From an uncultured Candidatus Peribacteria bacterium (GTDB lineage: Bacteria; Patescibacteriota; Gracilibacteria; BD1-5; UBA2023), in assembly GCA_964482035.1 (NCBI GenBank), contig CAYZVC010000004.1:19572-83571 (forward strand): a stretch of 64,000 nucleotides of DNA. Direction: 5' to 3'. Shown piece after piece: positions 24,089-55,955 of the stretch. The notes beneath the pieces are model-generated. The model searched no databases, was not told the origin of the DNA, and saw nothing but the letters and a program-made list of their open reading frames with translations. The translations under genes were made by a program, and so were the position numbers. Each line of letters begins with the position of its first letter. The first letter of the stretch is position 1.

Positions 24089-24107
24089 GTAATGAGGGCT
24101 CGCTATT

Positions 24108-24641: not shown

Positions 24642-24714
24642 GCGTTGATGTTCAATAGAGATAGAGCGAACACAATCCAGCTAACGATTAATCAATCCAG
24701 GATACTGGCAGCCA

Positions 24715-28868: not shown

Positions 28869-29285
28869 ATGCCGCCCGCAAAAACCCCCCATACGAAGCC
28901 CGCGGTTAAGAAAACCCTGAGTTTCCGCGGCTTCACCCTCGCCGAACTCATCGTCGTCGTCACCATCCTCGCCATTTTGGCGACGATAGGTTTTTTGGCG
29001 CTCTCCGGCTATACGCAGGACGCCAAGGACGCCGGCGTGAAAACCAACGTCCGTTCGGTCTATACCGCAATCACCGCGGAAAGCGCGGTATCCGGAAATT
29101 CGCCCCGGTACTACGTCGTCCACGATCCGGACGCGGCCCTTTCGGGCGGAATCGTCTTCGTCAGCGGAAACCCGAACGTCCTTACCGGAGGCGACTGGAA
29201 TACGCCCGGAACGAACTATTCGGCGGGCAATCCCGATTACGTGAAGCTGAAGCTGAATCCTGAAAAATTCCGCATCGCTTCGGCG
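28869..29285 (+). repeat. pilin N-terminal module, paralogous copy 2
   Basis: See 7945-8350; similarity stops where the C-terminal domains begin. Confidence 0.7.
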
Positions 29286-34323: not shown

Positions 34324-34330
34324 CTGGTTC

Positions 34331-34368
34331 AAAAAAATCCCTTCCCGAGACGCGGGGAGGGATTTTTC
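34331..34368. terminator. bidirectional intrinsic terminator
   Basis: ATCCCTTCCC / GGGGAGGGAT stem flanked by an A-run and a T-run, between convergent genes. Confidence 0.7.
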
Positions 34369-34372
34369 AAGA

Positions 34373-37300
34373 TTAGGCGGATTTCTTCTTGGGTTTCACG
34401 TCTTCGCGGTAGAGCACCTTGAGTGCGCAAGGAATAAAGACGAGCGTGATGGTGGTGCCTACGATGAGTCCGCCGGCGAAAGCCAACGCGAACGGCCTCC
34501 ACATTTCGTCGGAAGCGGCGAGGACGAAGAGCCCGAGCGCCGTGATGGCCGTAGTGAGGAATACCGGTTCGAGACGCGATTTGACCGATTCGACGATGAT
34601 CGCGTCGAGGTCGCCCTTCCCTCCGGAACTCTCGAAGAGTTCGTTGAAACGGTTGACCAGATAGATGATGTGCGCCAACCCTACGCCGATGAGCCCGAAG
34701 AACCCGAGGTCGACCATGAAGCTCATGGTGAGTCCGCTCAGAAGGAGGAACGCGAGCGCGCCGGTAAGGAAGAGCGGCATGGTGGCGACGAGGATTCCCG
34801 GCTGCCGGAAATTGCCGAAGTTGAGCACGAGGATGGCGAACATCAGCACGAAGCCCACGAGAAACGCCATTCCGAGGTCTTTTCCGGACTGTTCCATGTC
34901 TTTGACGTCGGCACCGTAGGCCATCTGGACGGCCGGATATTTCGCTACGATGGCGTTGATCTTGGCGGTCGCCTCAGAGAGCGTGAGGTCGTTCCTTTTA
35001 TTGGCTTCTACGCGCACGACGAGGTTTCCGTCGAGGTGCTGGAAGCTCTTGAGCTGGGGCTGGAGACGCGTTTCTTTCAGTACTTCGGAAAGGTAGGCGT
35101 TGGTACCGGGGATGACGAGGTTCTTGAAGTCGACGCTCGCGCCCGAGCCGGACTGGTACGCCACGTATCCGCGGACAGGAATCACGTCTTTGCCGAAGTC
35201 GCCGAGGCTGGTAATCGAAATGCCGTTGCCCTTGTATTCGGTGAGGGCGTTGGATTGCCCCTTCTGATGAATGGAATACACGAACGCGTCGAGTTCGGCG
35301 GGGGCGATGCCGAGCTGGGCCAAACGGTCGAGGTCGTAGACCATTTCGACCTTTCCGTTGGTGTGTTGCAGACTGCTGGTCCAACCGTAGGTTCCGTCGA
35401 TGGCCTTGAGTTCGCCGAGCATCTTTTCGTATTCTCCGGCGAGCTTTTCGATTCCCCCTTCCGAACCGGAAAGCGAGAGGTTGAAGGTAACGTCCTTTCC
35501 TTCGCTCGGACCGGACTTTTGGATCATGACCGTCACGTCAGAAACGCGTTTCGAAAGTTCGGGGTCGGCGGCGATCTTTTCGCCGAGGAACTCGTGGAGT
35601 TCGGAATACATGTGGACCGCGTTGTCTTTTTCTTCGCGGCTGTCGGTATCGGTAAGAACGACGTTGAACTTGGTGAGGTCGGGATTGAAGCTGGAGCGGT
35701 AGACGGTGTTGTCGAGCGCGGACTGGGAGAAGTTTTCGCCAAGGCTGATTTCGAGGTTCTTTACGACCCCCGGGTGCTTTTCGCTGAAGAATTCTTCGAT
35801 AAGGTCCGAGAGTTTCGCCGTGGCCGCCTGGTTGGCTTCCATGCCCGTATCTTTGGAATAGGAAACGTTGACGTAGATGTTGTCCTTGTCGGTGAGCGGC
35901 ATGAAGTCGGCCGCGCCGAATTTGGCGAAGGCGATGATGACGAACACGAAGAGCGCGTAGAACGCCGTGATGAAGAATTTGGGCGTTTTGAGGATGCGTT
36001 CGTACATTCGGTCAAACGGCTTTTCGAAGCGCGAGAAGAATTTTTCGAGTTTTCCATGTCCGTCGCCCTTGCGGACTTTGAGATCCATGTACGAAAGCAC
36101 GAGCGGCAAGAACACGAACGCCACCACGATGGAGAACGCGAGGGTGAGGTTGACCGTGACTGGCAAAAACTTCATGAATTCGCCCATCTTTCCGCTGAGC
36201 ACGAATCCGATGGGAAGGAACATGGATATCGTGACGAGGTTTCCGATGAGGAGCGGTTTCCAGTAGATGGACAACGAGTGCTGGATGGCGCGGAACTTCG
36301 AGTAGCCCTTGCGCATGCCGTCTTCGGCGCCCTGCGCCATGACGATGAGGTTGTCCACCATGATTCCGAGCGACAGATTGAGCGCGACGGAAACGATGCT
36401 GTTGAACGTGTAGCCCATCTGCTTGAGCGCGATGAACGACAACAGGTAGACGAACGGGAACGTGATGGCGACCGCGAACGATCCGCGGAGACCGAGGAAG
36501 ATGGTGGCGATGATGACGATGAGCACCGAAGTGTCGCGGAAGCCGTCCAAAAACGCGTTGAACGTCTGCTTGATGGATATCTCCTGCGAGAACATTTCCT
36601 GCTCCTTGATGCTGTCCTTCGCGAATTCCGCGGACTTGCCGGCGAGGTAGTCTTTGACGCCGCCGATGACCTTGAGGATGTCGGAACCCGGAGACTTATA
36701 GACCATGAACGTCACCGCGTTTTCGCCGTTGACGTAGGAAAGGCGCTGGTAGAACGGGTGCGTTACGGAGACCTTCGCCAAATCTTTGAGGCGGAGCACG
36801 TTGCCGTTCTGGTTGACGAGCGGCACGTTTTCGAGGAAGTCGCGGAACTTCGAAAGCCGTTCGTCGACGTCGCCGGAGGTGCGCCCGTAGGTGCGAACCT
36901 CGAAACCGTAGAGGTTGCCTTCGAGTTTCTTCTTGTCGACCGGCTTCTGTTCGATGCTCGACGAAAGCATCTGCACGAGCACGGGAAGGCGGAGGTTGTA
37001 CCCGCGGAGCTTGTCGTAATCGAATTCGACTTCCACTTGCGAAACGTATTTCCCCACTACCGCGACCTTGTCGACCCCGGGAATCTTTTTCAATTCGTCT
37101 TCCATTCCTCCGACCTTGTCGAAAAGGACCGACGGATAGTACGGCCCCATGACCGAGAACGAATAGACCGGCATGTCTTTGGGGTCGGTCTTCGTCACCG
37201 CGATGTCGGAAACGCCCGTCGGGAGCGAGGCGCGCACTTCGTCGACGGCGGATTTGAGATCGGCGTACGCCGTACCCTTGTCGACGCCGCGCTGGAATTC

Positions 37301-37576
37301 GAGGTTGATGACCCCGACGTTGTTGGTGCTGACGGATTTGAACGTCGAAATGCCCTTTACCGACGGCAGCTTGTCCTCAATCTTCGAAATGACCTGCTGT
37401 TCGATGGTTTCGGCGTCGGCGCCCGGGTAGACGGCGGTGACGTTGAAGAACGGAAGGTTCACTTCCGGAATGGATTCCTTCGACATCGTCGTAAAACTGA
37501 CGTAGCCGATGGCCGCGAGCAATATCATGACGATGAGGAGGAACGGCCTAAAGGCCAAAAAGCGTTTTTCGAACAT
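34373..37576 (-). CDS. RND-family efflux transporter permease (AcrB/HAE type)
   Basis: Intact 1067-aa ORF with 12-TM / two-large-loop architecture and typical N-terminus FLAFRPFLLIVMILLAAIGYVSF; no TGA. Confidence 0.9.
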   Translation of the reverse strand: MFEKRFLAFRPFLLIVMILLAAIGYVSFTTMSKESIPEVNLPFFNVTAVYPGADAETIEQQVISKIEDKLPSVKGISTFKSVSTNNVGVINLEFQRGVDKGTAYADLKSAVDEVRASLPTGVSDIAVTKTDPKDMPVYSFSVMGPYYPSVLFDKVGGMEDELKKIPGVDKVAVVGKYVSQVEVEFDYDKLRGYNLRLPVLVQMLSSSIEQKPVDKKKLEGNLYGFEVRTYGRTSGDVDERLSKFRDFLENVPLVNQNGNVLRLKDLAKVSVTHPFYQRLSYVNGENAVTFMVYKSPGSDILKVIGGVKDYLAGKSAEFAKDSIKEQEMFSQEISIKQTFNAFLDGFRDTSVLIVIIATIFLGLRGSFAVAITFPFVYLLSFIALKQMGYTFNSIVSVALNLSLGIMVDNLIVMAQGAEDGMRKGYSKFRAIQHSLSIYWKPLLIGNLVTISMFLPIGFVLSGKMGEFMKFLPVTVNLTLAFSIVVAFVFLPLVLSYMDLKVRKGDGHGKLEKFFSRFEKPFDRMYERILKTPKFFITAFYALFVFVIIAFAKFGAADFMPLTDKDNIYVNVSYSKDTGMEANQAATAKLSDLIEEFFSEKHPGVVKNLEISLGENFSQSALDNTVYRSSFNPDLTKFNVVLTDTDSREEKDNAVHMYSELHEFLGEKIAADPELSKRVSDVTVMIQKSGPSEGKDVTFNLSLSGSEGGIEKLAGEYEKMLGELKAIDGTYGWTSSLQHTNGKVEMVYDLDRLAQLGIAPAELDAFVYSIHQKGQSNALTEYKGNGISITSLGDFGKDVIPVRGYVAYQSGSGASVDFKNLVIPGTNAYLSEVLKETRLQPQLKSFQHLDGNLVVRVEANKRNDLTLSEATAKINAIVAKYPAVQMAYGADVKDMEQSGKDLGMAFLVGFVLMFAILVLNFGNFRQPGILVATMPLFLTGALAFLLLSGLTMSFMVDLGFFGLIGVGLAHIIYLVNRFNELFESSGGKGDLDAIIVESVKSRLEPVFLTTAITALGLFVLAASDEMWRPFALAFAGGLIVGTTITLVFIPCALKVLYREDVKPKKKSA

Positions 37577-37597
37577 GGAAGGAATCGGATACGGGCT

Positions 37598-39484
37598 TTA
37601 GCGGCAGAGGACGTCGCCGGAAGAAAGCCCCGAACGGACTTCTACGCGGTCGGAATCGAGGTCGCCCAAGACGACGGTCTTTTCGGTGACGGAACCGTCG
37701 GCCGATTTGGCCTTCACGCGGAACCCGCCGATGGTGTTGGTAATGAAATTCACCGGAACGGAAATCTTCGCCGAAGAAAGCGCCGAGCCGGATGCCGTAG
37801 CCGAAACGTCAATGACGCGCCCTTCGGAAACGACCGAGGAAAGTCCGACGGTTTTGCCGTCCTGAACCGCGGACGACGAGGTTTCGTAGATGGAGTTCTG
37901 CGTTACCGGATCCTGATAGCTGAGCTTGGCCTTGAGTTCGGAAGAATACTTCTTGCCGTCGATTTCGAACGAAACCGGAAGCGGCAACGGGAGGTCGTCG
38001 GGGGAATACGCCTGGATTTTCAAGCCCGATTCGTCCGGAACGATCTGGCAGACGGTGGCCCCTGCGGCGACCTTGTTGCCTTCGCTCGCGGATTTTTCCT
38101 TTACGGTACCCGCGATGTCGGAGACGACCGACTGGGTCACGAGGGCGTTGGCGACATTGGTCAGGCCGTTTTCCAGCTGGGCGATCTGGTTGTTCAACTG
38201 GTTGATCTGGATTTCTTTCTGCGACTGGAGCGATTCGATCTGCGAATTCACGCCGCTCAGGTTGGTTTTGAGCGTAGCGAGCGACGAGACCGACTGGTTT
38301 TTCTGGAGGTCGAGCGACGAAACGTAGCTGCCGAGCTTGTTCGACTTCACGTTGTCGATATTGGCCAATACGCTCTTCTTGCTGTTCTCAGCGCCGTTGA
38401 TCTGGGTGCTGAGCGAAAGGATCTGGGTGTCGTAGGTGTTACGGACGGTGTCGAAACTCTTGCCGACGGCGTCGAAACTTCCCTTGGCGGTAAGGATGCC
38501 GTTTTCGAATTGGACGAGCGTGCCGAAAAGCGAGTCGATGGTGGATTGCGAAAAGTTGGTGGAAACGACCGATCCCTTCACCGATTCCTTCGCTTTGCCC
38601 AAGAGGTCGGCGACGGAACCGAGGAACGCGGACTGCGCGTCGGCGTCCATCGAATCGAACTTCATGAACGCGGCATTGGCAGCGGACCATCCGGAAACTA
38701 CCGAGTTTTTCAACGAGGAATCCTTGGCGCCCAAGTAGGTGTCGTAGGCGTCGTTCTTTTCGCGGTTCTTATCGGAAATTCCGTAGGTTTCGTCCAAAAC
38801 GGTGAGCGCGTTGGCTACGAGCGCCTTGGATTGGTTTCGGGCATTGGCGAGGTTGGAATCGAGCTTGGCCAAATCGGCCTTTTGGGAATCCTGAAGCTTG
38901 GCTTTGGAAGCGGTGAGGTCGGCGATTTGGGTGTCGAGCGTGGAGAGCTGGATGTTCAGAAGGTCGAGCTGCTTGTCGATGTCGGAAACGCCGAATCCGC
39001 GCTGCTCCTCGATCTTGGAAAGCGTGTCTTCGAGAATGGAAATCTGGTTTTCGAGATTGGATTTCTGCGTCTGGAGCGAACCGAGCTGGGTGGCGAAGTT
39101 CGAATTGGTAGAAGCGAGGATTTCGCGGGTATTGGAAAGCTGCGAAGAGAGCGATTCCTTTTGGGAAATCTGGTTCTTTACGGAAACGTCCGAAAAATCG
39201 GGAACGATCTTGGCGACCACGTCACCCGCGCGGACCTTCTTCCCCTTTTCGCACGAGAGGGATTCCACCGTGCCGCCGTTACCGGCGGAAAGGTTGCGGA
39301 CGTTGTCGGAAAGGACCTTCGCTTTGAGCGTGAGGGAACGGTCGCCGGAAGAACCGACCTGGAAGGTTTCGGCGCACGTCGCACCGGAACTCGAGGCGGA
39401 GGGAGTGGCGGCTTCTTGGGTTTTTCCGCAGGAAGCGAGAAGCGCCGCGCAAAAAACGGCGGCGATGACGGGAGATTTTCGCAT
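37598..39484 (-). CDS. efflux adaptor (HlyD/membrane-fusion family) lipoprotein with an unusually long coiled coil
   Basis: Lipobox AALLAS-C-G; biotinyl/lipoyl-like GDVVAKIVP and GATVCQIVP halves separated by about 400 aa of heptad-like Q/S/L/N repeats; C-terminal beta domain; directly upstream of the RND gene. Confidence 0.8.
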   Translation of the reverse strand: MRKSPVIAAVFCAALLASCGKTQEAATPSASSSGATCAETFQVGSSGDRSLTLKAKVLSDNVRNLSAGNGGTVESLSCEKGKKVRAGDVVAKIVPDFSDVSVKNQISQKESLSSQLSNTREILASTNSNFATQLGSLQTQKSNLENQISILEDTLSKIEEQRGFGVSDIDKQLDLLNIQLSTLDTQIADLTASKAKLQDSQKADLAKLDSNLANARNQSKALVANALTVLDETYGISDKNREKNDAYDTYLGAKDSSLKNSVVSGWSAANAAFMKFDSMDADAQSAFLGSVADLLGKAKESVKGSVVSTNFSQSTIDSLFGTLVQFENGILTAKGSFDAVGKSFDTVRNTYDTQILSLSTQINGAENSKKSVLANIDNVKSNKLGSYVSSLDLQKNQSVSSLATLKTNLSGVNSQIESLQSQKEIQINQLNNQIAQLENGLTNVANALVTQSVVSDIAGTVKEKSASEGNKVAAGATVCQIVPDESGLKIQAYSPDDLPLPLPVSFEIDGKKYSSELKAKLSYQDPVTQNSIYETSSSAVQDGKTVGLSSVVSEGRVIDVSATASGSALSSAKISVPVNFITNTIGGFRVKAKSADGSVTEKTVVLGDLDSDRVEVRSGLSSGDVLCR

Positions 39485-39496
39485 GCTGGATTTGGA

Positions 39497-39697
39497 TTAT
39501 TCGAGGGTGACGCCTTCGGCGCGGGCGTATTCGATAAGGCTGAGCAGGTCGTCGTTGCGGATGAGGGCTACTGCGCGTTCGTCCTTTACGACGATGGTGA
39601 CGCCGGTACCCGGCTGAAGGCCGAGTTTGTCGCGGACGTCCTTGGGAATGACGATTTGCCCCTTGGTTCCGACGATGACGGTACCGCAAAGGCGCAT
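39497..39697 (-). CDS. AbrB/MazE/SpoVT-family DNA-binding protein
   Basis: GTKGQIVIPKDVRDKLGLQPGTGVTIVV swapped-hairpin motif; GGAGG SD; first gene of the adaptor-RND operon. Confidence 0.85.
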   Translation of the reverse strand: MRLCGTVIVGTKGQIVIPKDVRDKLGLQPGTGVTIVVKDERAVALIRNDDLLSLIEYARAEGVTLE

Positions 39698-39885
39698 TTT
39701 TCCTCCGGAAGGGGAAAGCTTGTTTCAATTTTTTCCTTCGGACATCTTACGTTTCTTTATGAAGTATGACTAAACATACTTGTATGATATTTCATATTTT
39801 TGAGATTTCAAATGCAAAGATGGGAAGAGTGTTATTTGGATTTCGCGCCGTTTCGCTATAATCCGTCAGTTCCAAACCCGAAATC

Positions 39886-41370
39886 ATGAAAACCTTCTAC
39901 GTCACCACCCCCATCTACTATTCCAACGGCATCCCGCATATCGGGCACGCCTACGCTTCGTTCATCGCGGACGTTTTGGCAAAGCACCGCCGCAACCTCG
40001 GATACGAGGTGAAATTTTCGACGGGCGTTGACGAAAACAGCCAGAAGGTGGTCGAAAAGGCCGCCGAAGCGGGCATGGGCATCATGGAATACTGCGATTC
40101 CATGGCTGGCAAACACCAGGCCATCTGGGATGGGCTCGGCATCACCTACACCGATTTCGTACGCACCACCACCGATCAGCACAAAGCCTTCGTACAAGGC
40201 GTTTTGCAGAAATCGTTCGACAACGGCGACATCTACCTGGGCGAATACGAAGGCCTCTACTGCGTGGGTTGCGAAGCGTTCAAGAAGGCTTCCGACCTCA
40301 CCGAAGACGGCCTCTGCCCCGACCACAAGAAGAAGCCCGACGTCATCAAGGAGAAGAACTACTTCTTCCGCCTTTCCAAGTACGAAGCGGCGCTTAAGGA
40401 GCTCTTCGTAAAAAATCCCGATTTCATCGTTCCCCGCTCCCGCGGAAACGAAGTCGTACAGTTCATCGAAGAAGGGCTCGAAGACTTCTCGATCTCCCGC
40501 GAAGGCAGCACCTTCGGCATTCCGCTCCCGTTCGACAACAGCCACGTGACCTACGTCTGGTACGACGCGCTTTTCAACTACGTCAGCGCCTGCGAGGGCG
40601 GCGACGAGAAATTCTGGCCGGCGGACGTGCACGTCGTAGGTAAGGACATCATCCGTTTCCATGCCATTTTCTGGCCGGCGATGCTCATGTCGGCAGGATA
40701 CGCTTTGCCGAAAAACATCCTCGCTACCGGGCACTTCACCATCGACGGACAGAAGATCTCCAAGAGCCTCGGCAACGCCATCGATCCGGTGGAATTCTGC
40801 CAGCAGTACCCTAAAGAGCTTCTCCTCCTCTACCTCCTCACGTCCTTCCCCATCGGTCAGGACGGCGACTTCTCGGTAACGCAGGCGGTCAACGCGTTCA
40901 ACGCCAAGCTCGCCAACAACTTGGGCAACCTCCTCAACCGCTTCCTCGTGCTTTCGCTCAAGCAGGGCGGTAAAATCGACGGAACCATGGACGGCGAAGT
41001 CGAAACCAAGAAGCTCGAATTCGTGGCTGCGTTCGAAAAGGCGATGGAATGCTTCGACCTCCGCGCGGCGCTCGAATCGGCATTCGAATTCGGCGACGTT
41101 CTCAACAAGTTCGTCGACACGAAGAAACCCTGGGACAAAGAAGCCACCGGCGTCGTCGATACGCTCCACACCGTGGGCGAAGGACTCCGCGCCATGGCGA
41201 TTTGCCTCATGCCGTTCTTCCCCGAGAAGATGTCCGAACTTCTCGACCGCATGGGTCTCGCCTCGCAGCGCGAACGCCTGCTTGCCGGAAAATATAGCGA
41301 AGTCGTATCGGAAAAAACCGCGTTCTCCGTCGCCGAAAAGGGCGAACCGCTCTTCCAGCGCATCGCGTAA
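39886..41370 (+). CDS. metG: methionyl-tRNA synthetase
   Basis: TPIYYSNGIPHIGHAY (HIGH), KISKSLGN (KMSKS), CxxC knuckle CVGCEAF...CPDH; intact 494 aa, no TGA. Confidence 0.95.
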   Translation: MKTFYVTTPIYYSNGIPHIGHAYASFIADVLAKHRRNLGYEVKFSTGVDENSQKVVEKAAEAGMGIMEYCDSMAGKHQAIWDGLGITYTDFVRTTTDQHKAFVQGVLQKSFDNGDIYLGEYEGLYCVGCEAFKKASDLTEDGLCPDHKKKPDVIKEKNYFFRLSKYEAALKELFVKNPDFIVPRSRGNEVVQFIEEGLEDFSISREGSTFGIPLPFDNSHVTYVWYDALFNYVSACEGGDEKFWPADVHVVGKDIIRFHAIFWPAMLMSAGYALPKNILATGHFTIDGQKISKSLGNAIDPVEFCQQYPKELLLLYLLTSFPIGQDGDFSVTQAVNAFNAKLANNLGNLLNRFLVLSLKQGGKIDGTMDGEVETKKLEFVAAFEKAMECFDLRAALESAFEFGDVLNKFVDTKKPWDKEATGVVDTLHTVGEGLRAMAICLMPFFPEKMSELLDRMGLASQRERLLAGKYSEVVSEKTAFSVAEKGEPLFQRIA

Positions 41371-43714: not shown

Positions 43715-43740
43715 GGAAAAACCCCCGTTCGAACGGGGGT
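43715..43740 (-). terminator. intrinsic terminator
   Basis: CCCCCGTTC/GAACGGGGG palindrome followed (minus strand) by TTTTT. Confidence 0.7.
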
Positions 43741-43750
43741 CGATTTCACT

Positions 43751-44848
43751 TTAGGAAATTCCGTAATCCTTGCGTAATTTCTCAATAACCGATTTCGCCA
43801 TGAGGTACTTGTGCGAAGTTTTCCAACTGCCGTCGGTCTTGCCTCAGAACGTTTCCGGTTCGTTTTCGAGCATTTCGAGCATTTTCGACGAGGGTACGAG
43901 TTCGACCGCGTCGATTTCGCGACGGTCGAAACCGGTAACCTCGCCGCGGAATTCGAACGCGTACACGTCGACGCGTTCGTTGTTGTCCTCGACGATTTCG
44001 CGTCCTTCTTTGTTCTTTTTCGTGACGGAAGCGTACGGGGCGTTGAATTCTACGAGTTTCAAAGCCGGGACCTCGGGAAGGAGGGAATCGAAATCGATGA
44101 CGCCCGAAGCCGAAACCGTGGGAATGCGTTCAGTCCGTTCGAGACGGATGCCGGTCTCCTCTTCGATTTCACGGAGCACCGAGGTGAACGAAACGTATTT
44201 CCTGAGCCCCGGATTCACCGAGCCGTCGGCCGGGTACGCATTGGAACCGTTTCCTGGCGCGGCGGGGATTTCGGAAACCGCGTACCCCACGTGCCCGCCT
44301 CAAAGCCTTTGCCAATGCGCTTTGCCGGTGGCCGATTTCTCAGCGGAACGCTTGCCCATGTAGATGCCGATGTCGCCGATGTCGCGGTACGCGTCGGGAT
44401 TTACGGCCCAATAGTGGGTGGAAATATGGCCTATCCCTTCTTCGTGGGCGACTTTTCGGTCGACGAGGCGAGAAGTGAGTCGGCCCTTGGAATCGATTTC
44501 CGGGAGGTACTCGACCCTTTTTTCCGCGAGGGCATTCAAAACCCCGTCCAAAACCGCGGTTCGGACCGATTGGAGGTCGGGAGATTTACGAAACGCCTCG
44601 AAAAGGGCGCGATCGCTGAAAGAAAGCGTTTTTACGGGCTTCCCGTCTTGCGAGAACACGACGTTCGAAGTTCCGTCCACATAACCGCCGAGCACGGTAT
44701 AGAAAGGGAAATTTTTGACCGTTCCGTCCTCGAAGCGCGCTTGGACGCCATGGAAATTCGGACCTCATCAAAATCCCTCGCCGATGCCGATGCGGCAGTC
44801 GGTGGATTCGGTGACGAGAATATGGGAATCGGTCGCGTTATGGCTCAT
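43751..44848 (-). CDS. NUDIX-family hydrolase with an N-terminal extension
   Basis: Pieces 43844-44290 and 44300-44695, plus upstream, share one frame via TGAs (including a tandem TGA-TGA in GEGF-GG-GPN); Nudix box ...LREIEEETGI. Confidence 0.7.
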
Positions 44849-44878
44849 GGGTACGATTTTACGATATAGTTGGAAAAT

Positions 44879-45718
44879 TTAAAAGAAACGGCGTTCGGTG
44901 AGTTCGAGAAACCCTTCGACGCCCACCAAATCCCGGTCGTTCGCGAAGAGCACGTAACCGTCGGTCTTGGCGAAAACCTCCTTTCCGGAATCGCGGGCGA
45001 TGAGTTGTCCCTTCTTTACGGGCTCGAAATCGGCGAATTCCTTCACCACCCTGAATTCCGAAGTTTTCGTGAAATACGCGCGGGAAAGCTTCATCGTGCG
45101 CTGCGCGTATTCCCGTACCGGCGCGTCGACCATGCCGAGCTGCGCGAGGAAGGCGGTGGCGATTTCGCGGGCGTTGGAAAAAGTCTTCGGTTCGGAATGC
45201 TGGCCGCATTCGACCCCTACCGCGACGATGCCGTTCTTCGTCGCCCATTCTTCCGTTCCGCCCGGCATGGCGGTTTCGAATCCGACGCAGCGGATTTCGA
45301 TCGGCAATTTCGAAACGAGGGGAAACGCCGCTTCGGAACACACTGCCACCGTCGGACTTCCGGGCGTCGGGCTCGAATGGAGATCGAGACAGTAATCGCA
45401 CCCGGCCATGACCTTCATCATCTCGCGGGAACGGACGTATTCGTAGGCGGATTTGGCCGTTTCGTCCAATTCGCGGTCATCACGGAACATGCGGTTGAGA
45501 TTGGCATCGGTTTGGCGGATTCCACGTTCTATGGCACGCAGGTTTCCATAGAGAAGCTTGACGGAACCGCGTTTCAAAAAGAGGTGTTCGCGGAAATAAT
45601 GGAGGAGTTCGACTCCGCATTTTTCACTTCCGTGGACTCCGCCGATGATACAGACGGTCGGCCCAGGAACTCCCGAGGATACGGTGACCGCGTCAGAGGT
45701 AGGACGGTATTTGCACAT
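44879..45718 (-). CDS. succinylglutamate desuccinylase / aspartoacylase-family zinc hydrolase
   Basis: C-terminal 279 codons of ORF 44879-46282 from ATG 45718; IIGGVHGSEKCG and LDLHS motifs. Confidence 0.75.
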   Translation of the reverse strand: MCKYRPTSDAVTVSSGVPGPTVCIIGGVHGSEKCGVELLHYFREHLFLKRGSVKLLYGNLRAIERGIRQTDANLNRMFRDDRELDETAKSAYEYVRSREMMKVMAGCDYCLDLHSSPTPGSPTVAVCSEAAFPLVSKLPIEIRCVGFETAMPGGTEEWATKNGIVAVGVECGQHSEPKTFSNAREIATAFLAQLGMVDAPVREYAQRTMKLSRAYFTKTSEFRVVKEFADFEPVKKGQLIARDSGKEVFAKTDGYVLFANDRDLVGVEGFLELTERRFF

Positions 45719-45852
45719 ATGGGATGGGGTTACGGCACCGGTATAATCCGATTTCCGGGGAAGGAATCGGAAAAAAAAAGAAAACGGTGGCGAGACTGGC
45801 TGGCAAGACGTTAAAAATTCCGTATCATCAGGCGAGTAATCCCGCATCGAAC

Positions 45853-47568
45853 ATGGAAAGCAACCTTTCGAACCTCGACGAAGTGCGCGCGTCCCACGCG
45901 AACGCCTACCGCGAATTCTTCGCGAAATACGACCTCGTAACCAGCGCCAATTACTGCGTGAGCTGGAGTCCGAGCGGATTCGACGGCGGAACCGAGCGGG
46001 TACTCCTTCGCACCAAGACTCCGCTCGAATGCTTGGTCGGCATCCGTTCGGCGAAAAACGGAAAATCGTCTTTCGCCAAGGTAACGAACTACGACGTTCG
46101 AAAGGACGCGTTCGAAACCGTAGAATTCGAAAAACTCTCGGACCAATCGGCCCGCGTACTCGAAATCGTGGACGAGTTCCTCGAATCCGCCGATTTGCCC
46201 CCGGTAGAAATCGGCATCCTTTCCGAAACCGCGCGCGGACACGGGTTCGGATTCTCATGAACGATGGCCGCGGCGCTTTCATGAGCGCTCTTCAAACTTG
46301 CCGGAGAAGTCTCGGCAGAAGAACTCTCGCCTGCGGATTCTTCACGCCCTCCCCTCTTTGCCGACGAATTCGCGCTCGCGTTCAGGATCATGAGCGTCAT
46401 GCGGTACGACGGAACGGCCGGATCCAACGCGGCTGCGGCGCTCTTGCCGTGACAAGTGTTCATCGCGCAGGTATCGAATTCCGTTTCCGAAGAATCCGAC
46501 GCGTCCGACAACTTTTCCGTCGGCACGGAAAATCCCCCGTATCTCGATTACGGAATCGTGTTTTCCGGCCTCAGAACGGACACGAAGGCCGTAGAAAACC
46601 AGAAAAAAACCGACGAAGGGAAGCTCGAACGTTTTTCGACGTACCTTCGGGAGACGCTCGGGGTGAAGAAATCCGAATCTGGACTCGGCAGGCTTTCCGA
46701 ACCCGGACAGGTCCATCAGGCGTTTGCCGATTCGGTTTCGGCGACGTCGGTGAAAATGGCTTATTATCTTCGGAAGTTGGTCGCCGAAGGGTACGAAGAA
46801 CATCTCGCGGAAGAAATCATCGACGCGGCGAACAATTACCGGCAAGCCGTAGCCATGCTCTCGAAACCCGAACGGTTTCCCGACCGCTTGCGAACGGCCT
46901 TTCTTTCCAGCGTCGGGCATCCGGACGCGGATTTCGGAATCTTTCCGATATACGGCGGGAAAATGGGCGGCGGATACCTCTTCGTCATGAAGCCGCAAAC
47001 CGGCCGCGAAGCGTTGTTGAAAGCCGTTGACGAAATTCGGTCGCAATATCCGAACGCCAAGATCGAGTACGCGAATTACGCCCAAAGCGGATCGCAAACG
47101 GCCGTGGTCGTACGTCAGGATTTGGAAAACGGATTCGTAGCGAAAGAGCTTGAGGAAGGCGGCGGATTCATTTACAGCGACAATGCCGGACAGTTCAAGA
47201 TCGGCGAACTCTCCGACCTTCTCGAGTACGCGTCCGACGGGATCGCGTTCTGCGAGGCCGTCGGAGAAATCCACATCCTCGGCAAGGCGGCGAATTCGAC
47301 GCAACTCAAATCCCAGAACGCGACCATCGAACTCTTCGGAGCGCTGCTTTCGAAATGAACGGTGAAGAACGACGAACTCCCGGCTTCGAGCTACTCGAAA
47401 AACCGCAGCGAAATGCAGTCGAAAATCCTCTGACCGGTAGGAAAAGTCTTCGAAGAGGCTTTTGGGAAGAAAATCCCCCTCACCTGTTCCGGGACGGTAT
47501 CGGAATTCGTCATGGAACTTGGAAAAACGAACGTGAAAATCGGATACGTAAAAAAAATCGGGGCATAG
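45853..47568 (+). CDS. GHMP-kinase-like protein with a long C-terminal extension (571 aa)
   Basis: Pieces 45724-46260, 46456-47358 and the tail share one frame via TGAs; GHGFGFS-G-TMAAALSGAL resembles GHMP motif II; TAG 47566-47568. Confidence 0.55.
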
Positions 47569-47630
47569 GTCCCGGTTTTTTGTTTTTCGCGGGGTTTTCG
47601 GGCAAAATGGAAGGGTAACCGAACATTGCA

Positions 47631-50600
47631 ATGCGCGACGGAAAGAACGGGAATGACCGAATCGAAACCGAATGAAAAAACGGAACTCCGGAATGGGGTT
47701 CCGACGTTTTGTCGACGAACGTATCGCGACACGTCACATGAACCCTCGAATTGGAAAAGGGCGCCGTTTCGGCGATTTTCGAATCGGCGCTCGACCGTGT
47801 GGCCGAAACCTGAGGCAAGTACCGCCGCATCTGGCTGGTCCGCCATTTCGACTACGAAGACTCGGAAGAAGCGCGGGAATACGTGAAACGATCCAAAGAA
47901 GACAAGAGCAAGATGTCGAAGGAAAAGATCGACGAACTCAACGAACTCAGCAAAAAAGTGCGTGCGAACGTGAACGATCCGTTCATCCAGAAGATCCTCT
48001 TATGATCCCTCAGGGGACGGCCGGACAAAACGAAAACGTCGGTGTATCTGGATATCGAAGCAAGCATCGCGACCCGAAACAAGATGACCTACGAGTGGGT
48101 AGCGAACTCGGGAGAACTTAAGGATTGGCTCGTTACCAAAAGATTCAAGATCACGACGGAAAAGGTCGACGACAATGGGGAAAAGAACTTTCGGGCATTT
48201 TCGGAAATCAAGAACATACTGGACGATTGGACGAGCGACAAAGACGGAGGCGACGGCGTGATTTTTGGCAACAGGACGCCTTCTCACGCGTTCTGAATTC
48301 GCGTCTGACGGCCGTGTTACAGCGAAAAGGACCATACCGACCAAATGGAGCGTCTCGGTTACGATTTTTTGGACATTGAAAAAGCGACGGGGAAACCCGT
48401 TCTCATCCAAAATGGAAAAACGCTCAGGGTCACGTTGGAAAACCTTGACGGAATCGAAAAAGCCATTCTTGACACCGGTGACGATACCGGGAGGAAAGCG
48501 AAGATTTCGAAAGCTTTTTCGGAATTTCCGCTCATCATGCTTCAGGAAGCCATCAACGAAGTGATTGCGGAACTGGAGAAGACGGATCGTGCGCAATACT
48601 TGGCCGTCTTGCGCTCGCTTTGCGAATGGAAAGACGCCAAAGGGAAACACGATCCCGAACTGCAAGCGTACGTTTTCGAACGGCTCATCGAAAACTGATT
48701 TCCATGGGAAACCCTGCTGCAATGGGAATGGTCGACGGGCGCGCTCGAATGGATGGCGACCAAAGGGTACCGCGAAATGGTCATCCGGTATTTTTGAGAT
48801 TCCGAAGAAGGGCCGACGGGCGATCTCGGACCTTTTGCCAAATCGATCAACGTCAAGGGAATGAAGGAACTCTTCGCGGACGCGTACGAATACTGGAAGA
48901 TTCGACAAAAGCAGAAGCGGTCGGTAGATCCGGCCATCCGCGCAGGCAAGAAGGGAGCTATCGCCGAAAGGTACGCGCATACCGCACGGTGAGACGGGAC
49001 CGAACGTCGGGAATACCTTAACTTCGAAGGGATCGCGAAACTCTCGACCGTACGTAACGTCGTGGTCCTCGGTACGATCGGGGAAGGAAAAAGCCTTTGG
49101 CTCTGCGAATTCGCCAAGTCCGCGATTGTCAAAGGCCAAAAAATCCGCTTTTACGAAGCACGGGACCTTTTGCCCAAATCTTTCCAGCGAGGAGGAAATA
49201 TTTTCGAAGAATTCGAAAATTTTCCGGAAGCGCTTTTCTGCGTAGACGGGATGGATGAAATCCGCGATCCGAAAACGCGCGACGAAATCAAATCGGCAAT
49301 CGATTCTCTCGGAAAACGTTTCATCATAGGATCGAGGCCCTCGGAATACTCCGAACACTCCGAAAAACATGCCACCGTCCGTCTCGCGGGAATGGAGCTC
49401 GACGATTTTCTCGAAGAGCGGTTCGACGATGAACGGGATAGGGAAAAAGTACGGATCCTCATTAGGGGCATGCGGTTTTCGGAAAGCGCACAATCATCGC
49501 AAACGGAAGCTGACCCGCTTCTGTTGGCTTTCGCTTGCATGCTTGCCGAGAACGGCGACCGCGCGGATTCTCCCGATTTCCGAAATAGGGCGGATTTGTA
49601 CGAAAACGCGGCGAAATACGTCCTTTCGAAACATTCCAAGGATTCCAAAGGACAACAGGATTACGATCCGTCCAGAGACGTGGACGGATGGATGAAAGAA
49701 TTGGGCAAGCGCGCTTACGAGAAATTTTCGGGAACCGAAAAAATCGGGGCGGACCGATATTCCGATACGCATTTAGGACTTCTCTACCGAAAAGAAGGGA
49801 CCGAAAAATACGAATTCGCGCACCACTCGTTTTACGAGTATTTCCTCGCGAGGCATTTTGCGGAAAATCCGGAATCATTCGAACGGGGAGGCCGTGAAGG
49901 ATTGCCGAACGGCTTAACCTCGGAACGGAACTCGCTTATCTACCTTGCCGAAATCCTTGCGAATTCCGGAAAAATCGAAGAGCTTGCCGAATTTCTTAAA
50001 AAGCTGCGTCGGTTTCCGGTAGAAAAAAAGCGAAAAGGTACGGATTCGGTTTCGGTCGGACGGACGCCGTTCATTACCTGACTGGAAATTCTGCACGCCC
50101 TTCCGAATGAGTTCTTAGGACTCCCCGAGATTCGTAAGATTCGGAAAAAGTACGAAAATGACGTATCCGAAATCGACGCGACTTGGATCGGAGAAAACTA
50201 CCAGGAAATATTGGAGTTCGCCAAGAGGACTGACCGTGCGGATTCGCCTCTTATCCTAAGGACGATCGACGTCTTCAAATCAGCCATCGAACCCCGAATA
50301 GCGAGCGAGGTGGGCGCCGACGATCCCATGTCCGGAATCACCGAATTGTGCAAGGCCCTCGCATCAATGGGAACCCCGTTGTCCGTATCGACGGCCGATA
50401 AGATCGAGAACGTGGTCCGAAAACTCAGACTGTCGCTTTTCATGCCGATTCCCGATTCCGAGGAAGATTTCCTGGCTCTTGAGGCGGATCTCAGAAGAGA
50501 AGACGTCCAAGGGGTATTTTGAAAATTCCACAAAGGGAAGAAGGATTTCGAATTCCATTTGGCAGCAATCGGCACCCAGTCATCCATGAGCGCGATCGAA

Positions 50601-50993
50601 TCACGCATAAAATACATGTCGGTTGACGACATGGCAAGAATGTACGAAACGATCGCCGGAGGACCGGTTTCGCGATTGTCCTTGGAAATCGCGGAAAAGG
50701 GCGCTCAAAAGATGATGGAAGGCGGGCATTACACGCCGGCACGCTGGATTTACCGCTCCATATTCGAAATGGGGACGAGAAAAGCCAAATTGATTGCCTT
50801 GAAATGAGCCAGAAGCCTGGAAGGAAAATGCAGGGATCCTTGGAAAATCTGGGCCAATTCCACTTTGTTCGACTACCGCGCCCCACGAAGGCTCCCTCCG
50901 GTCACGGACCTCTCGAAACTTCTCGTTTTGGAGGATCGTTGGAGCACAACGATCCGACGCATTTCGAAAATGAAAAAGCGCTTCTTGTGATAA
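47631..50993 (+). CDS. NACHT-type STAND NTPase (1120 aa), Avs/bNACHT-like candidate defence protein
   Basis: Pieces 48042-48296, 48345-48698, 49062-50081, 50211-50522 and 50559-50807 share one frame, joined by about 13 TGAs; Walker A VVLGTIGEGKS, Walker B LFCVDGMDE, FAHHSFYEYFLARH; ends ...RFL-G-TAA (50991-50993). Confidence 0.8.
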
Positions 50994-51012
50994 TCTTCGG
51001 ATCAAGTTCTCA

Positions 51013-51050
51013 GAAAAAGAACCGCCATCGCGGTTCTTTTTCTTTTTTCT
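51013..51050 (+). terminator. intrinsic terminator
   Basis: GAACCG-CCATCG-CGGTTC followed by a long T-run. Confidence 0.75.
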
Positions 51051-51131: not shown

Positions 51132-51248
51132 ATGATTGCCAACGCACTGCTCATCGGGCTGGGCCTCGTCATCGGCTTCATCATCTGCGCCGTTTGGCTG
51201 GCCAAGAAGGTTTTTCGCGGCCTCGGTAAATTGAAAGACAAGTTCTGA
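51132..51248 (+). CDS. 38-aa single-TM micro-protein, apparent TGA stop
   Basis: AAAGGAG 6 nt before the ATG; MIANALLIGLGLVIGFIICAVWLAKKVFRGLGKLKDKF; TGA 51246-51248 sits just before the next SD. Confidence 0.5.
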   Translation: MIANALLIGLGLVIGFIICAVWLAKKVFRGLGKLKDKF

Positions 51249-51262
51249 AAGGAGAACCGGAC

Positions 51263-51790
51263 ATGAGAATCATTACCTACACGGTCATCAGTTTTATTGC
51301 GGCCTTGAGCGCGTGGGGATTCCTCACGTCCTGGTTCTTTGCCGCAGTAATCACGACGACCTTCGCGTACCCGTACTTTTTCGATACGCTGGTTTCGACC
51401 GGCATCGACCCTTGGACGGCAAGGACGCTCTCCGCGCTCTTCGCCCTCGGAACGCTCTTCGCGCTCCGGGAATGGGGACGAGGATCGAAAGCGAGGGCCG
51501 CCGTAATCGGCACCTTGCTGTTCGTCGCGATATTCGGCATAGCGAGATTCCAAACCGACGGATTCAACTTCGATCCGAAAACCGGAAAGAATCTCGTGAA
51601 CGTCGTACGTACTCCGGATGGTGGAAAAACGGTTCCCAAGCATTGGGCATACGATCCCGCCTCCGGAAACAAAACCGAAGCCGCCACGCCTGAAAACGTA
51701 CGGCACATCGGAAAACCCAACGGTTCCGAATCCGGAGACGGACAAGAACTTCGTCAATTGCAACGAATCCTGCGTTCGCAAAACCCCTGA
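51263..51790 (+). CDS. 175-aa membrane protein (about 4 TM plus a soluble tail), apparent TGA stop
   Basis: AAGGAG 8 nt before the ATG; intact in the ORF track; TGA 51788-51790 lies 10 nt before the next SD. Confidence 0.55.
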   Translation: MRIITYTVISFIAALSAWGFLTSWFFAAVITTTFAYPYFFDTLVSTGIDPWTARTLSALFALGTLFALREWGRGSKARAAVIGTLLFVAIFGIARFQTDGFNFDPKTGKNLVNVVRTPDGGKTVPKHWAYDPASGNKTEAATPENVRHIGKPNGSESGDGQELRQLQRILRSQNP

Positions 51791-51809
51791 ACTTCCATCG
51801 GAGGCAATC

Positions 51810-51959
51810 ATGCAATACCAAACCAATACCAAAAAGAAGGCGGCCATTCTGGTCATCTTCGGCCTTATGCTTACCGCATTCGGCATCCTGCTGGGAAAGA
51901 AACCCGAAGCGATCGACGCCATCAAGGCAAAAATCGCGGAACGTTTTCCTTCCAAGTAA
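51810..51959 (+). CDS. 49-aa single-TM micro-protein
   Basis: GGAGG 5 nt before the ATG; MQYQTNTKKKAAILVIFGLMLTAFGILLGKK...; TAA stop. Confidence 0.5.
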   Translation: MQYQTNTKKKAAILVIFGLMLTAFGILLGKKPEAIDAIKAKIAERFPSK

Positions 51960-52019
51960 TCCCCAATGGGCGGACGCCATCCATAACCGTCCGCCCGCTT
52001 TCCGTAAGAGGAGGCCGCC

Positions 52020-52127
52020 ATGCGGAAAACTCTCAAAGAAATCGCCCTCGAAGCTTTTATCGGAGGGATTACCAACGCCATTTACACCGGACTCCGGAGA
52101 TGGCTCATCAAATACGTAAAAGATTGA
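52020..52127 (+). CDS. 35-aa micro-protein, apparent TGA stop (or the N-terminus of the next gene if TGA=Gly)
   Basis: GGAGG 5 nt before the ATG; TGA 52125-52127 is in frame with ATG 52140. Confidence 0.4.
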   Translation: MRKTLKEIALEAFIGGITNAIYTGLRRWLIKYVKD

Positions 52128-52139
52128 AAGGAGTACGAA

Positions 52140-52661
52140 ATGTGGGGAAAAATCAAACCCGAATTGGCGGTTGCCATCATAATCATGGCCGTTGTCTTGG
52201 TGGGCTCCATGGTCGCCCGGAACGAGCCGCTCGTTCTCGCCGAATATTTCCCGCATTTCGCTCCGGAATCGGCAAAAACTCGACTGAAGCTCAAGAAGCT
52301 GGAAGAACTCGGAAATCAGATGCTGAAAGAATACGGCGATCTTGAAAAGGACCTCGAAATCCAGACGACGAAGCTTCAGTACCTTTTGGACGAAGTCGAA
52401 AGAAGGAATTCCGACAAAAGGAAAAAATCGGAAGTCGAGGAGGCGCGGGACTTCTACGAAAAACGCGCGATTGAGTCCTACAGGAAAACAATCCGAGAAA
52501 TACGGAAACGGATAGTCGCATTGAAATTGGCAAGCGCCGAGAAAGCGTTCATGGTGCGCGAACTCGAAGCCGAATTGAAAATGCAGACGATTCGAGAACG
52601 TAACGAAATCCTCGTACGGAAAATCGACGAAGCCGTTCCCAATACGGCTGCGAAAAAGTAG
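52140..52661 (+). CDS. 173-aa N-terminally anchored coiled-coil protein
   Basis: AAGGAG 6 nt before the ATG; TM helix ELAVAIIIMAVVLVGSMV, then K/E-rich heptads; TAG stop. Confidence 0.6.
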   Translation: MWGKIKPELAVAIIIMAVVLVGSMVARNEPLVLAEYFPHFAPESAKTRLKLKKLEELGNQMLKEYGDLEKDLEIQTTKLQYLLDEVERRNSDKRKKSEVEEARDFYEKRAIESYRKTIREIRKRIVALKLASAEKAFMVRELEAELKMQTIRERNEILVRKIDEAVPNTAAKK

Positions 52662-52728
52662 TAACGGCGACGGACTCGACGTGACGCGACCGGAAAATCC
52701 GGTTCACGACACGCGGACTCGACATACG

Positions 52729-52758
52729 AAATCCCCCCGGAATTCCGGGGGGATTTTT
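52729..52758. terminator. bidirectional intrinsic terminator
   Basis: Perfect palindrome ATCCCCCCGGAATTCCGGGGGGAT flanked by an A-run and a T-run. Confidence 0.75.
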
Positions 52759-52776
52759 AATGCGGGGTTTCTAATA

Positions 52777-53466
52777 CTAAGTTCCGCACTTCCCTACGAA
52801 CGCCCGGAAAATCGGCGCGTGAGATTCGAGACACTCCGGATGCCATTGAACCCCGTACACGGGAAGTTCGCGGTGTTGGATGGCTTCGACCGCGCCGTCT
52901 TCGGCGCTTTTGGCTATGATTTCCAACTCATCGCCCAATACGTCGATCGCCTGGTGGTGGATGGAATTGACCGGAATCCGGGATTCGTCGAAAGCTACCG
53001 AAAGGAATCCTCCGTCCCCGCAAATCACCACTTCGTGAATCTTTTCGTGCCGTTCGTCCGGGCGGAAATGGAACTCGCTATTGGAAAGGTTCTGGATGAG
53101 CGAACCCCCGAAATACACGTTGATGAGCTGCATGCCCTTGCAAATTCAGAGCACGGGCTTTTCGGCGGCGATGACGGCTTTCATGAACCGGAAAAGGAAC
53201 CCGTCATGTTTGGGAACGAACTCCACCGCTCCGCAAAGCTCGGCTCCGTAGAGCGCGGGGTAGATATCGGCCCCGCCGGGAAATACGAAACCGTCGAGAT
53301 CCTCGACGTACGTCGAAACCGCTTCGGCATTGCAGGGCACGATATAGGCGACTCATCCGGCCTTTTCGATGGCGGTAACGTACCGGAACGTTACGCGATT
53401 GGTTTCCCCATGGGTTTCCTGCCGGTAATCCGATAGGATTCCGACGCGCACTCTCTTTCTTTCCAT
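52777..53466 (-). CDS. class I glutamine amidotransferase / gamma-glutamyl-GABA hydrolase (PuuD, peptidase C26) family
   Basis: Pieces 52777-53133 and 53146-53340, plus upstream, are in frame; catalytic G-ICKGMQLINV with the G encoded by TGA 53146-53148; HHQAI and VQWHPE motifs. Confidence 0.85.
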
Positions 53467-55860: not shown

Positions 55861-55885
55861 GATGCCCCTTTCAGGTAACGATCCC

Positions 55886-55920
55886 AAACCCTCTTCTCGC
55901 AAGGAAGAGGGTTTTATTTC
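55886..55920 (+). terminator. riboswitch expression-platform terminator
   Basis: CCCTCTTC-TCGCAAG-GAAGAGGG followed by TTTTATTT. Confidence 0.75.
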
Positions 55921-55955
55921 GCCGCGCCACCGGGGCGCGACCACCTATCCACACC

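Follow-up and report, generated by a model that had tools for sequence, protein, structure and literature searches.

The locus described here raises the question of whether a bacterial reading frame that has to pass through thirteen TGA codons is a single functional gene and, if so, what its parts would do together. It lies in a stretch of 64,000 nucleotides (nt) from an uncultured Candidatus Peribacteria bacterium (GenBank assembly GCA_964482035.1, contig CAYZVC010000004.1, positions 19,572 to 83,571 of the forward strand), referred to below as the window, with positions counted from its first letter. The gene in question, gene B, occupies 47631..50993 on the plus strand and encodes a protein of 1,120 amino acids (aa) with 13 TGA codons read as glycine and a TAA stop, in which a predicted histidine-phosphatase-like (phosphoglycerate-mutase-like, PGAM-like) domain, a helical domain, a NACHT module and a helical C-terminal region follow one another; a second gene, gene A, precedes it. 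There is, in our estimate, about an even chance that gene B is the sensor-switch of a two-gene NLR-like conflict module with a phosphatase-type output, belonging to Gracilibacteria-type bacteria that read TGA as glycine.

One gene read with TGA as glycine

The frame of gene B comprises 1,121 codons, namely 1,120 sense codons and the terminal TAA (50991-50993), and translation of 47631-50993(+) gives no internal TAA and no TAG before that stop. In-frame TGA occurs at codons 15, 37, 61, 125, 222, 226, 356, 389, 454, 817, 964, 1059 and 1120, and the closest in-frame stop on the 5′ side is a TAA at 47616. With a codon-usage score trained on the other genes of the window, this frame scores highest of the six from ~47560 to 50700. 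Its 1,125 codons free of TAA and TAG also exceed the longest such stretch in every one of 100 Markov-simulated 64-kb windows (mean 520 codons, maximum 820), by a margin that is modest because the DNA is 55% GC; since long frames of this kind are not rare at such a composition, the length of the open reading frame (ORF) alone is weak evidence.

The decisive evidence is the comparison with an ortholog, available as two public contigs, L001 and L002 (Logan SRR22388268 and SRR22388134). The syntenic ortholog L001 is collinear with gene B from start to stop, the last 60 residues included. TGA and GGN codons replace one another between gene B and this ortholog at the aligned glycines 15, 207, 213, 356, 389 and 803, glycine 213 being the invariant Gly of a GNR motif described below, and four more TGA codons are common to both. 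These aligned swaps demonstrate code 25 (TGA=Gly), the code of Gracilibacteria and Absconditabacteria, inside gene B itself, and together with the translation they bear out the initial annotation, which had proposed a single ORF with 13 TGA=Gly readings. TGA is required as a sense codon window-wide, in HsdR, UbiA and other genes; helicase motif V of HsdR, for instance, reads TT[TGA]VD, with glycine expected at the TGA position. All 39 of the 39 roughly called window genes terminate in TAA or TAG, and TGA makes up ~7% of the glycine codons in window genes. No tRNA-Gly(UCA) was found within the 64-kb window. In public predictions the family appears as fragments (P0001, P0025, P0063) or with Trp in place of Gly, e.g. 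a Walker A motif rendered 'HVWQWKS'.

Selection on the encoded protein can be read from the same ortholog. Residues 416-1120 are ~85% identical to L001, and the ratio of nonsynonymous to synonymous substitution rates (dN/dS) is ~0.22 for aa 416-816 and ~0.13 for aa 817-1120, the odd-looking Arg/Trp-rich tail included. Exhaustive protein search and genome scan together yielded ~30 homologs, 840-1,760 aa long, whose parts are arranged as in gene B, nearly all with Walker A at residues 440-500. That a region of ~470 aa precedes the central module in the same protein, as first proposed, is supported by this shared layout; a separate gene for the N-terminal 470 aa was considered and rejected, given the identical contiguous layout of the ~30 homologs and the collinear ortholog. 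It is thus extremely improbable that the ORF is not a functional single gene, i.e. that it is a pseudogene, two genes or an artefact of read-through at TGA. Such a reading could appeal to the codon-usage score of gene B, which is below that of the neighbouring genes (50 over 1,121 codons), to the position of 9 of the 13 TGA codons within the first 454 codons, and to the high GC content, at which long TAA/TAG-free frames are fairly common; it is countered by an ortholog that is collinear over its full length up to the last 60 residues, by dN/dS values of 0.13-0.22, by TGA and GGN exchanging at aligned glycines and by the contiguous architecture of the homologs. On these comparative data, the pseudogene and two-gene readings are excluded.

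The NACHT centre and the regions on either side

The NACHT module (49038..49910, plus strand, aa ~470-760) comprises a nucleotide-binding domain, a helical domain 1 and a winged-helix domain. The three motifs quoted in the initial annotation were confirmed in position: GTIGEGKS at aa 481-488 (49071-49094), LFCVDGMDE at aa 535-543 (49233-49259) and FAHHSFYEYFLARH at aa 729-742 (49815-49856). Its distinctive residues are K487 of Walker A, D539/D542/E543 of Walker B, the sensor-1 arginine R569 (IIGSRP), PLLL at 629-632 and H731 of the winged helix, which lies in FAHHSFYEYFLARH and aligns to the NLRP3 motif FIHMTFQEFFAA; K487, D539, D542, E543, R569 and H731 are invariant family columns and are NACHT signature residues. 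All the motifs by which the NACHT clade is recognized are found, specifically (i) Walker A as GxxxxGK[ST], (ii) Walker B as hhhhD[GA]xDE with the second acidic pair, (iii) the sensor-1 arginine in a (T/S)SRP strand and (iv) the winged-helix histidine in FxHxSFQE[FY]LAA.

Homology searches agree with the motifs. When the TGA-free segment aa 455-816 was used as a phmmer query against 1.84 billion representative proteins, 62 matches were obtained at E<=1e-3; of the distant ones (E 1e-7 to 1e-3), all ten that were tested pass the Pfam NACHT threshold, down to E=3.7e-23, and several also have NCH2 or EAD7 domains. A 15-sequence family profile searched against PDB places NLRP3 and NLRC4 at the top (E ~7e-4), in an alignment that spans Walker B to FxHxSFxEYFLA and matches FIHMTFQEFFAA of NLRP3. 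The AlphaFold2 model of aa 455-816 has a mean predicted local distance difference test score (pLDDT) of 76.4 and a predicted template modelling score (pTM) of 0.72, and is closest to NLRC4 (E=1.3e-7, TM 0.54-0.56 over ~355-370 columns), followed by NLRP2, Avs4, Apaf-1 and CED-4. Pfam NACHT matches weakly in 6 of 15 family members, and on gene B Pfam returns weak nSTAND3, nSTAND5 and IstB matches. The full gene B protein gave nothing useful against PDB by sequence or against NCBIfam, and scans for close relatives in genome and metagenome contigs with a single protein query gave no matches. Word-indexed protein searches with the full protein, with the N-terminal alignment A3 and with the gene A alignment A5 gave one match at most, a result that carries no information on rarity, since low-complexity words appear to fill the limit of 8,000 candidates. 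Since the Pfam and PADLOC models fail on gene B (the scores are weighed further below), the NACHT call, made in the initial annotation from motifs, therefore rests on the phmmer search, the family profile and the predicted fold. On sequence and model, the central module is a divergent member of the NACHT clade of STAND NTPases that falls below the curated threshold.

The region upstream, in which the initial annotation had recognized no effector motif, instead appears to hold a divergent PGAM-like fold followed by a helical domain. The domain of histidine-phosphatase fold is placed at 47799..48458 on the plus strand (aa ~57-276). In the family alignment, four conserved features mark the first ~280 residues: R-x4-R-H, the arginine R149, h-h-h-G-N-R-[ST] and ITPxNY. 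R-x4-R-H (R66, R71, H72; 47823-47846) sits on the first strand, the invariant R149 (48066-48098) begins a helix, and G213-N214-R215 lies at 48258-48293. Across the family the histidine of R71-H72 is invariant and the arginine is kept in at least 90% of members. A profile of the N-terminal family finds as its best PDB match 3eoz, a putative phosphoglycerate mutase (E=0.001), with RH aligned to RHG and R149 to the second catalytic arginine, the Arg of 'IRAKET'; the Gly of RHG is Phe in gene B. CobC is also among the matches of this profile (E=0.16). Pfam His_Phos_1 matches 4 of 18 family members, with a best E of 1.4e-4, and gives no match on gene B itself. In a subgroup consisting of P0010, P0013, P0016 and P0021, the sequence reads hhVRHG...LLGHK[ST], the classical histidine-phosphatase signature, and G-H-K at the position of the second histidine is found in L007 and L018 too.

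Structure prediction points the same way. The AlphaFold2 model of the N-terminal 443 aa of a homolog, P0004, has a beta-alpha-beta core (pLDDT 72.8, pTM 0.68), and in a Foldseek search of PDB its top 50 matches are all histidine phosphatases (PGAM5, PGAM1, RosC, HFP, GpgP) with a probability of 1.00. The homolog can be connected to gene B through the family hidden Markov model (HMM), which, built without gene B, matches its aa 33-328 with 66.7 bits and with all the motifs in register. Taken together, alignment and modelling identify aa ~57-276 as a divergent histidine-phosphatase domain, and by alignment gene B retains three of the four core catalytic residues (His72 and both arginines, R71 and R149). 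The sequence is compatible with catalysis as well as with mere ligand binding, and the domain may do either. The suggestion that this may be a new effector type is plausible, such an effector being apparently undescribed, but its second catalytic histidine is missing.

Between this domain and the NACHT module, a conserved helical linker domain (48459..48995, plus strand, aa ~277-455) was delimited from alignments A3 and A4, with conserved positions Q305, N309, S431-x-D433 and R447. In the P0004 model the equivalent region is all-helical with a pLDDT of 80-93, and aa ~277-455 have no Pfam match and no match to a known family. At the other end of the protein, the C-terminal helical region, presumed to be the sensor, covers 49911..50990 on the plus strand (aa 761-1120) and, as first described, is helical; it is 85.5% identical to the L001 ortholog with dN 0.082 and dS 0.641, and purifying selection extends to the stop codon. 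No Pfam family matches aa 761-1120, and relatives have HEAT-like or ~40-aa helical repeats. Pfam reveals no DNA-binding or other output domain in gene B.

The partner gene, the mosaic and the surrounding window

Gene A (45724..47568, plus strand; 614 aa, 5 in-frame TGA) adjoins gene B on the same strand, upstream of a 62-nt gap, and is weakly GHMP-kinase-like. It has the motifs SETARGHGFGFSG and GGKMGGGY and a conserved C-terminal domain of ~150 aa; the family motifs SETxRGHGFGFSG and GGKxGGGY are similar to motifs II and III of GHMP kinases. In 11 of the other loci examined, the family gene is directly preceded by a gene A homolog (tblastn E 1e-64 to 0; 25-70% identity), i.e. L001-L004, L006, L008-L011, L015, L016, L021 and L026, with L001/L002 and L003/L004 each counted once. 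Pfam GHMP_kinases_N matches 2 of 12 gene A orthologs (best 9.4e-6), and gene A has neither a PDB profile match nor a PADLOC match. Its motifs suggest, with low confidence, that gene A is GHMP-kinase-like. Comparison by hhalign with E. coli ThrB and with the PhoB C-terminus was uninformative, and an OmpR-like winged helix, which had been considered for its C-terminal domain, was dropped. Loci with a GNR-type N-terminal domain have gene A directly upstream, the two GHK-type loci examined (L007, L018) do not, and some family loci are without gene A. Within the 62-nt gap, a terminator-like hairpin (47552-47581) overlaps the TAG stop of gene A and might act between gene A and gene B as an attenuator or as a partial terminator. 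In L003 (GCA_964388475.1), an in-frame TAA or TAG occurs near the 5′ end of the gene A homolog (7791-7793), and the ORF restarts at 7794.

On the other side of gene B, a terminator-like hairpin of 14 pairs followed by a T-run (51012..51043, plus strand) begins 19 nt past the stop. Small membrane-type ORFs follow at 51132-51350, at 51263 to ~51700 and at 52020-52661, the last with a transmembrane segment and a coiled coil. This downstream cluster of micro-genes, whose co-occurrence with gene B the initial annotation had raised as a question, was rejected as part of the system, because the small-ORF region of 1.67 kb in the window (51155-52829) shrinks to ~330 bp in L001, so that the segment is not kept in the ortholog, and a terminator-like hairpin stands after gene B. 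The conserved partner, judged by these loci, is the upstream gene A and not the downstream micro-genes.

The identity of this region to its relatives changes abruptly. A mosaic boundary is located by blastn and protein alignments at 48891..48941 (aa ~415-420), where protein identity to L001 goes from ~31% upstream to ~85% downstream. More specifically, gene A is 44.5% identical to L001 and 70% to L003; aa 1-415 of gene B are ~31% identical to L001, with saturated dS, and 35-63% to L003 (48-63% for the N-terminal module); and aa 416-1120 are ~85% identical to L001 and 17-40% to L003, while the L001 DNA just upstream of gene A is again 91% identical to the window. Two linkage blocks emerge from these alignments, gene A with the N-terminal module and the NACHT module with the C-terminal region; the pattern is one of allele or module exchange with a breakpoint near nt 48891, not of local fast evolution. 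The joint inheritance of gene A and the N-terminal module argues that they work together. Effector swapping has been reported for bacterial NACHT proteins, and the mosaic in the window agrees with it (bioRxiv 10.1101/2022.07.19.500537).

All close family relatives come from metagenome-assembled genomes labelled Gracilibacteria, 'Peribacteria' or Patescibacteria and have 12-77 in-frame TGA codons in the homologous gene; on one Gracilibacteria-type contig, three family paralogs lie within 45 kb. Both the N-terminal module and gene A are absent from all of ~85 NACHT-related loci in other bacteria and on viral contigs, and the pair of genes is thus restricted, among the loci examined, to TGA-recoded Gracilibacteria-type genomes. 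The idea of a phage-borne family was rejected, since the NACHT relatives on viral contigs are distant and generic and have neither of the two, and a search of a phage collection with the gene B protein gave no match. The window, at 55%, has a GC content that is unusually high for a TGA=Gly organism, the genomes of family relatives being at 19-41%; the near relatives L001-L004 are exceptions outside that range, with L003 at 52%. The 'hypervariable' Gracilibacterium of Sieber et al. 2019, whose genome has 28.9% GC, is a different organism from that of the window.

The window as a whole is cellular DNA and includes genes for MetRS, a Na+/H+ exchanger, UbiA and a type I restriction-modification system. 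The R-subunit gene of the latter (16539-18926, plus strand) is split by an in-frame TAG at 17208-17210 ('QIIWRL*KARKKK', between helicase motifs I and Ia), for which a pseudogene, a misassembly or read-through could account; on its 3′ side lie HsdM (18944-20371) and an HsdS-like ORF. A low-GC stretch at ~20000-26000 (41-45% compared with ~56% elsewhere) contains defence-type genes, including a GHKL-ATPase-like ORF (21696-23690), a PD-Lambda-3_A-like protein (24108-24680, minus strand, E=1.7e-24) and a restriction-endonuclease domain of the type that is joined to partners of prokaryotic Argonautes (24715-25257, minus strand, E=2.4e-28). Situated ~22 kb away from gene B, this stretch was probably acquired as a defence islet. 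The L003 contig is collinear with the window at 11861-16198 and 43760-47610, without the intervening 27.5 kb; this stretch (16198-43760) starts right after tRNA-Cys (16122-16195), holds the restriction-modification genes, the low-GC islet, RND efflux genes and MetRS, and represents either an island insertion or a rearrangement. Two paralogous pilin-like genes (7945-9255 and 28869-30203, plus strand) share a near-identical prepilin N-terminus, GFTLAELIVVxTILAILATIGFLALSGY; in the second of them, 15 TGA codons and a Gly-rich tail are found. The high GC leaves long antisense frames open, e.g. at 33665-40411(+) opposite RND/MFP genes and at 144-3581(-) opposite 3-3404(+). ARAGORN calls a tRNA-Phe with anticodon AAA (43715-43783, minus strand) and a tRNA-Ala(TGC) (55863-55936, minus strand); a scan of the window at the Rfam gathering threshold confirmed only the tRNA-Cys at 16122.

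Proposed mechanism, rival explanations and known systems

The mechanism that we propose starts from what the preceding sections establish, i.e. one gene under code 25, the NACHT motifs and fold, a PGAM-like fold with its kept and lost residues, a gene pair, restriction to a lineage and recombination in blocks. On that basis a trigger, oligomerisation and catalysis, together with a part for gene A and a role in conflict or against phage, would be connected as follows. The C-terminal helical region would bind a trigger, upon which the NACHT module would swap its nucleotide and oligomerise. The N-terminal PGAM-like module, keeping the phospho-acceptor His72 and the phosphate-binding R71 and R149, would be the output and would be turned on by oligomerisation, as PGAM5 is by multimerisation; the finding of multimerisation-activated PGAM5 as the top structural neighbour makes an oligomerisation-gated activity plausible. 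Once active, the module would remove or transfer phosphate on a metabolite or protein, and this substrate would be linked to the product of gene A as its maker, antagonist or binding partner. Paralogs on one contig and block-wise allele swapping suggest conflict-like behaviour, and an anti-phage role may be proposed by analogy. In its most specific form, which is a tentative possibility and more doubtful than the outline given at the start, this would be an immune mechanism of candidate-phyla (Gracilibacteria-type) bacteria that has not been described before: the NLR-like NACHT sensor, once triggered, would activate a fused effector of histidine-phosphatase fold that acts on a phosphorylated metabolite or protein tied to the dedicated GHMP-type kinase; the output would be a phosphate-based abortive infection or signalling, and kinase and effector would be exchanged together as a cassette, recombining separately from the sensor.

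Several observations weigh against this proposal. At the level of catalysis, the second catalytic histidine (the 'sHG' motif) is absent: gene B has G213-N214-R215 and most family members have Asn at that position, N214 being equated with the histidine by alignment pattern, so that the domain may be a weak or altered phosphatase or none at all. The fold was modelled on P0004, which is ~17% identical to gene B (alignment A3), and the Foldseek E-values of that model are modest (from 4e-4, with TM 0.4-0.5 on the target side). The NACHT module misses the Pfam NACHT (PF05729) gathering cut-off of 26.7 bits, both with the whole gene B protein (12.2 bits, E=0.17) and with the NACHT segment alone (16.8 bits), and the PADLOC defence models, with which an Avs or bNACHT classification had been sought, recognize neither in gene B and return just DrmD at E=0.0036. 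Gene A scores E=0.0046 and 17.6 bits against GHMP_kinases_N, below the cut-off of 22.3, and E=0.014, a weak match, against the NCBIfam mevalonate kinase model TIGR00549. Finally, the immediate neighbours of the two genes are housekeeping-like (alpha/beta hydrolase, peptidase C26, GH114).

The principal alternative turns some of these points into a reading of its own, in which the PGAM-like domain is a non-catalytic sensor of a phospho-ligand: the gene A kinase would make a metabolite, the degenerate pocket (RH, R, and NR in place of H) would bind it and thereby gate the NACHT module, and the system would be a metabolic or host-interaction regulator of reduced-genome symbionts rather than an immune effector. 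The conserved Asn-Arg that replaces the lost histidine in most members fits this, as do the presence of gene A directly upstream of GNR-type members and its absence there from the GHK-type L007 and L018, the inheritance of gene A and the N-terminal module as one block, and the housekeeping-like neighbourhood. However, the invariant nucleophile histidine and both arginines suit catalysis as well as binding, the sensing part of known NLR-like proteins is C-terminal (bioRxiv 10.1101/2022.07.19.500537), expansion into paralogs and the swapping of alleles in blocks are seen more typically in conflict genes, and gene B has no DNA-binding or other output domain that Pfam detects. This alternative is considered less likely than the main proposal, and the evidence fits both. 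It is distinctly improbable that gene A is itself the effector or toxin and gene B its NLR-like regulator, with the PGAM-like domain reversing or restraining the phosphorylation product of gene A in a kinase/phosphatase toxin-antidote pair. The tight adjacency on one strand (62-nt gap) and the co-variation of gene A with the N-terminal module would suit such a pair; a terminator-like hairpin overlapping the end of gene A, the weak kinase identity of gene A and its absence from some family loci do not.

If the sensor-switch proposal is true, its interest lies in the company that gene B would keep. Bacterial NLR-like proteins are ancestors or analogues of the innate immune receptors of animals and plants, and the outputs known for them are chiefly nucleases, proteases, NADases and pore-formers, so that an output of phosphatase fold, served by a kinase-like partner of its own, would bring in a biochemical logic that is new. 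The host lineage, TGA=Gly Patescibacteria, has a defence repertoire that is almost unknown and invisible to standard-code annotation, and the block-wise recombination is a natural experiment on which parts of NLR-like proteins must co-evolve. A full-text search of a limited literature collection found nothing relevant on NACHT or STAND proteins together with a histidine phosphatase or a GHMP kinase, and the word 'phosphatase' is absent from the text of both the bNACHT survey (bioRxiv 10.1101/2022.07.19.500537) and a 2026 STAND survey. A NACHT protein with an N-terminus of histidine-phosphatase fold and a kinase-like partner is thus apparently undescribed among bacterial NLR-like immune proteins.

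Among known systems, the Avs (AVAST) proteins are, like gene B, built as a STAND NTPase between an effector at the N-terminus and a helical sensor at the C-terminus, and Avs4 is among the structural matches; they belong to other STAND clades and carry effectors of nuclease, protease or SIR2 type, and gene B matches no PADLOC Avs model. Branch 1 of the histidine phosphatases (dPGM, PGAM5, CobC, RosC; His_Phos_1) resembles the N-terminal module in its predicted fold, in the RH nucleophile after strand 1 and in the second phosphate-binding arginine at the start of an 'R-x-x-x-T' helix, aligned to 3eoz, and a subgroup of the family retains the full RHG ... R ... GH(K) set. Gene B and most members differ in having RHF, RHY or RHL for RHG and GNR[ST] for the second histidine; further differences are a long insertion between strand 1 and helix 1 and the fusion to a NACHT ATPase, and gene B lacks a Pfam match. 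PGAM5, a human mitochondrial Ser/Thr/His phosphatase of histidine-phosphatase fold, depends on multimerisation for its activity and takes part in cell-death pathways. Its structure (3mxo) ranks first among the neighbours of the P0004 N-terminal model, but PGAM5 has a complete catalytic set and no NTPase fusion, and its sequence relation to gene B is just at the superfamily level.

The closest comparison is with the bNACHT anti-phage proteins (Kibby et al., bioRxiv 10.1101/2022.07.19.500537). Gene B shares with them the tripartite build of an enzyme-like N-terminus, a central NACHT and a helical C-terminus, the motifs GxGKS, hhhhDGxDE, SRP and FxHxSFxEYFLA, NLRC4 as the closest structure, and an N-terminal module that is swapped between related strains. 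It differs from them in that Pfam NACHT and PADLOC do not detect it, in its N-terminus of predicted histidine-phosphatase fold, in its obligate-looking upstream partner and in its confinement to TGA=Gly Gracilibacteria-type genomes, and a role in defence would be assigned to it by analogy with these proteins.

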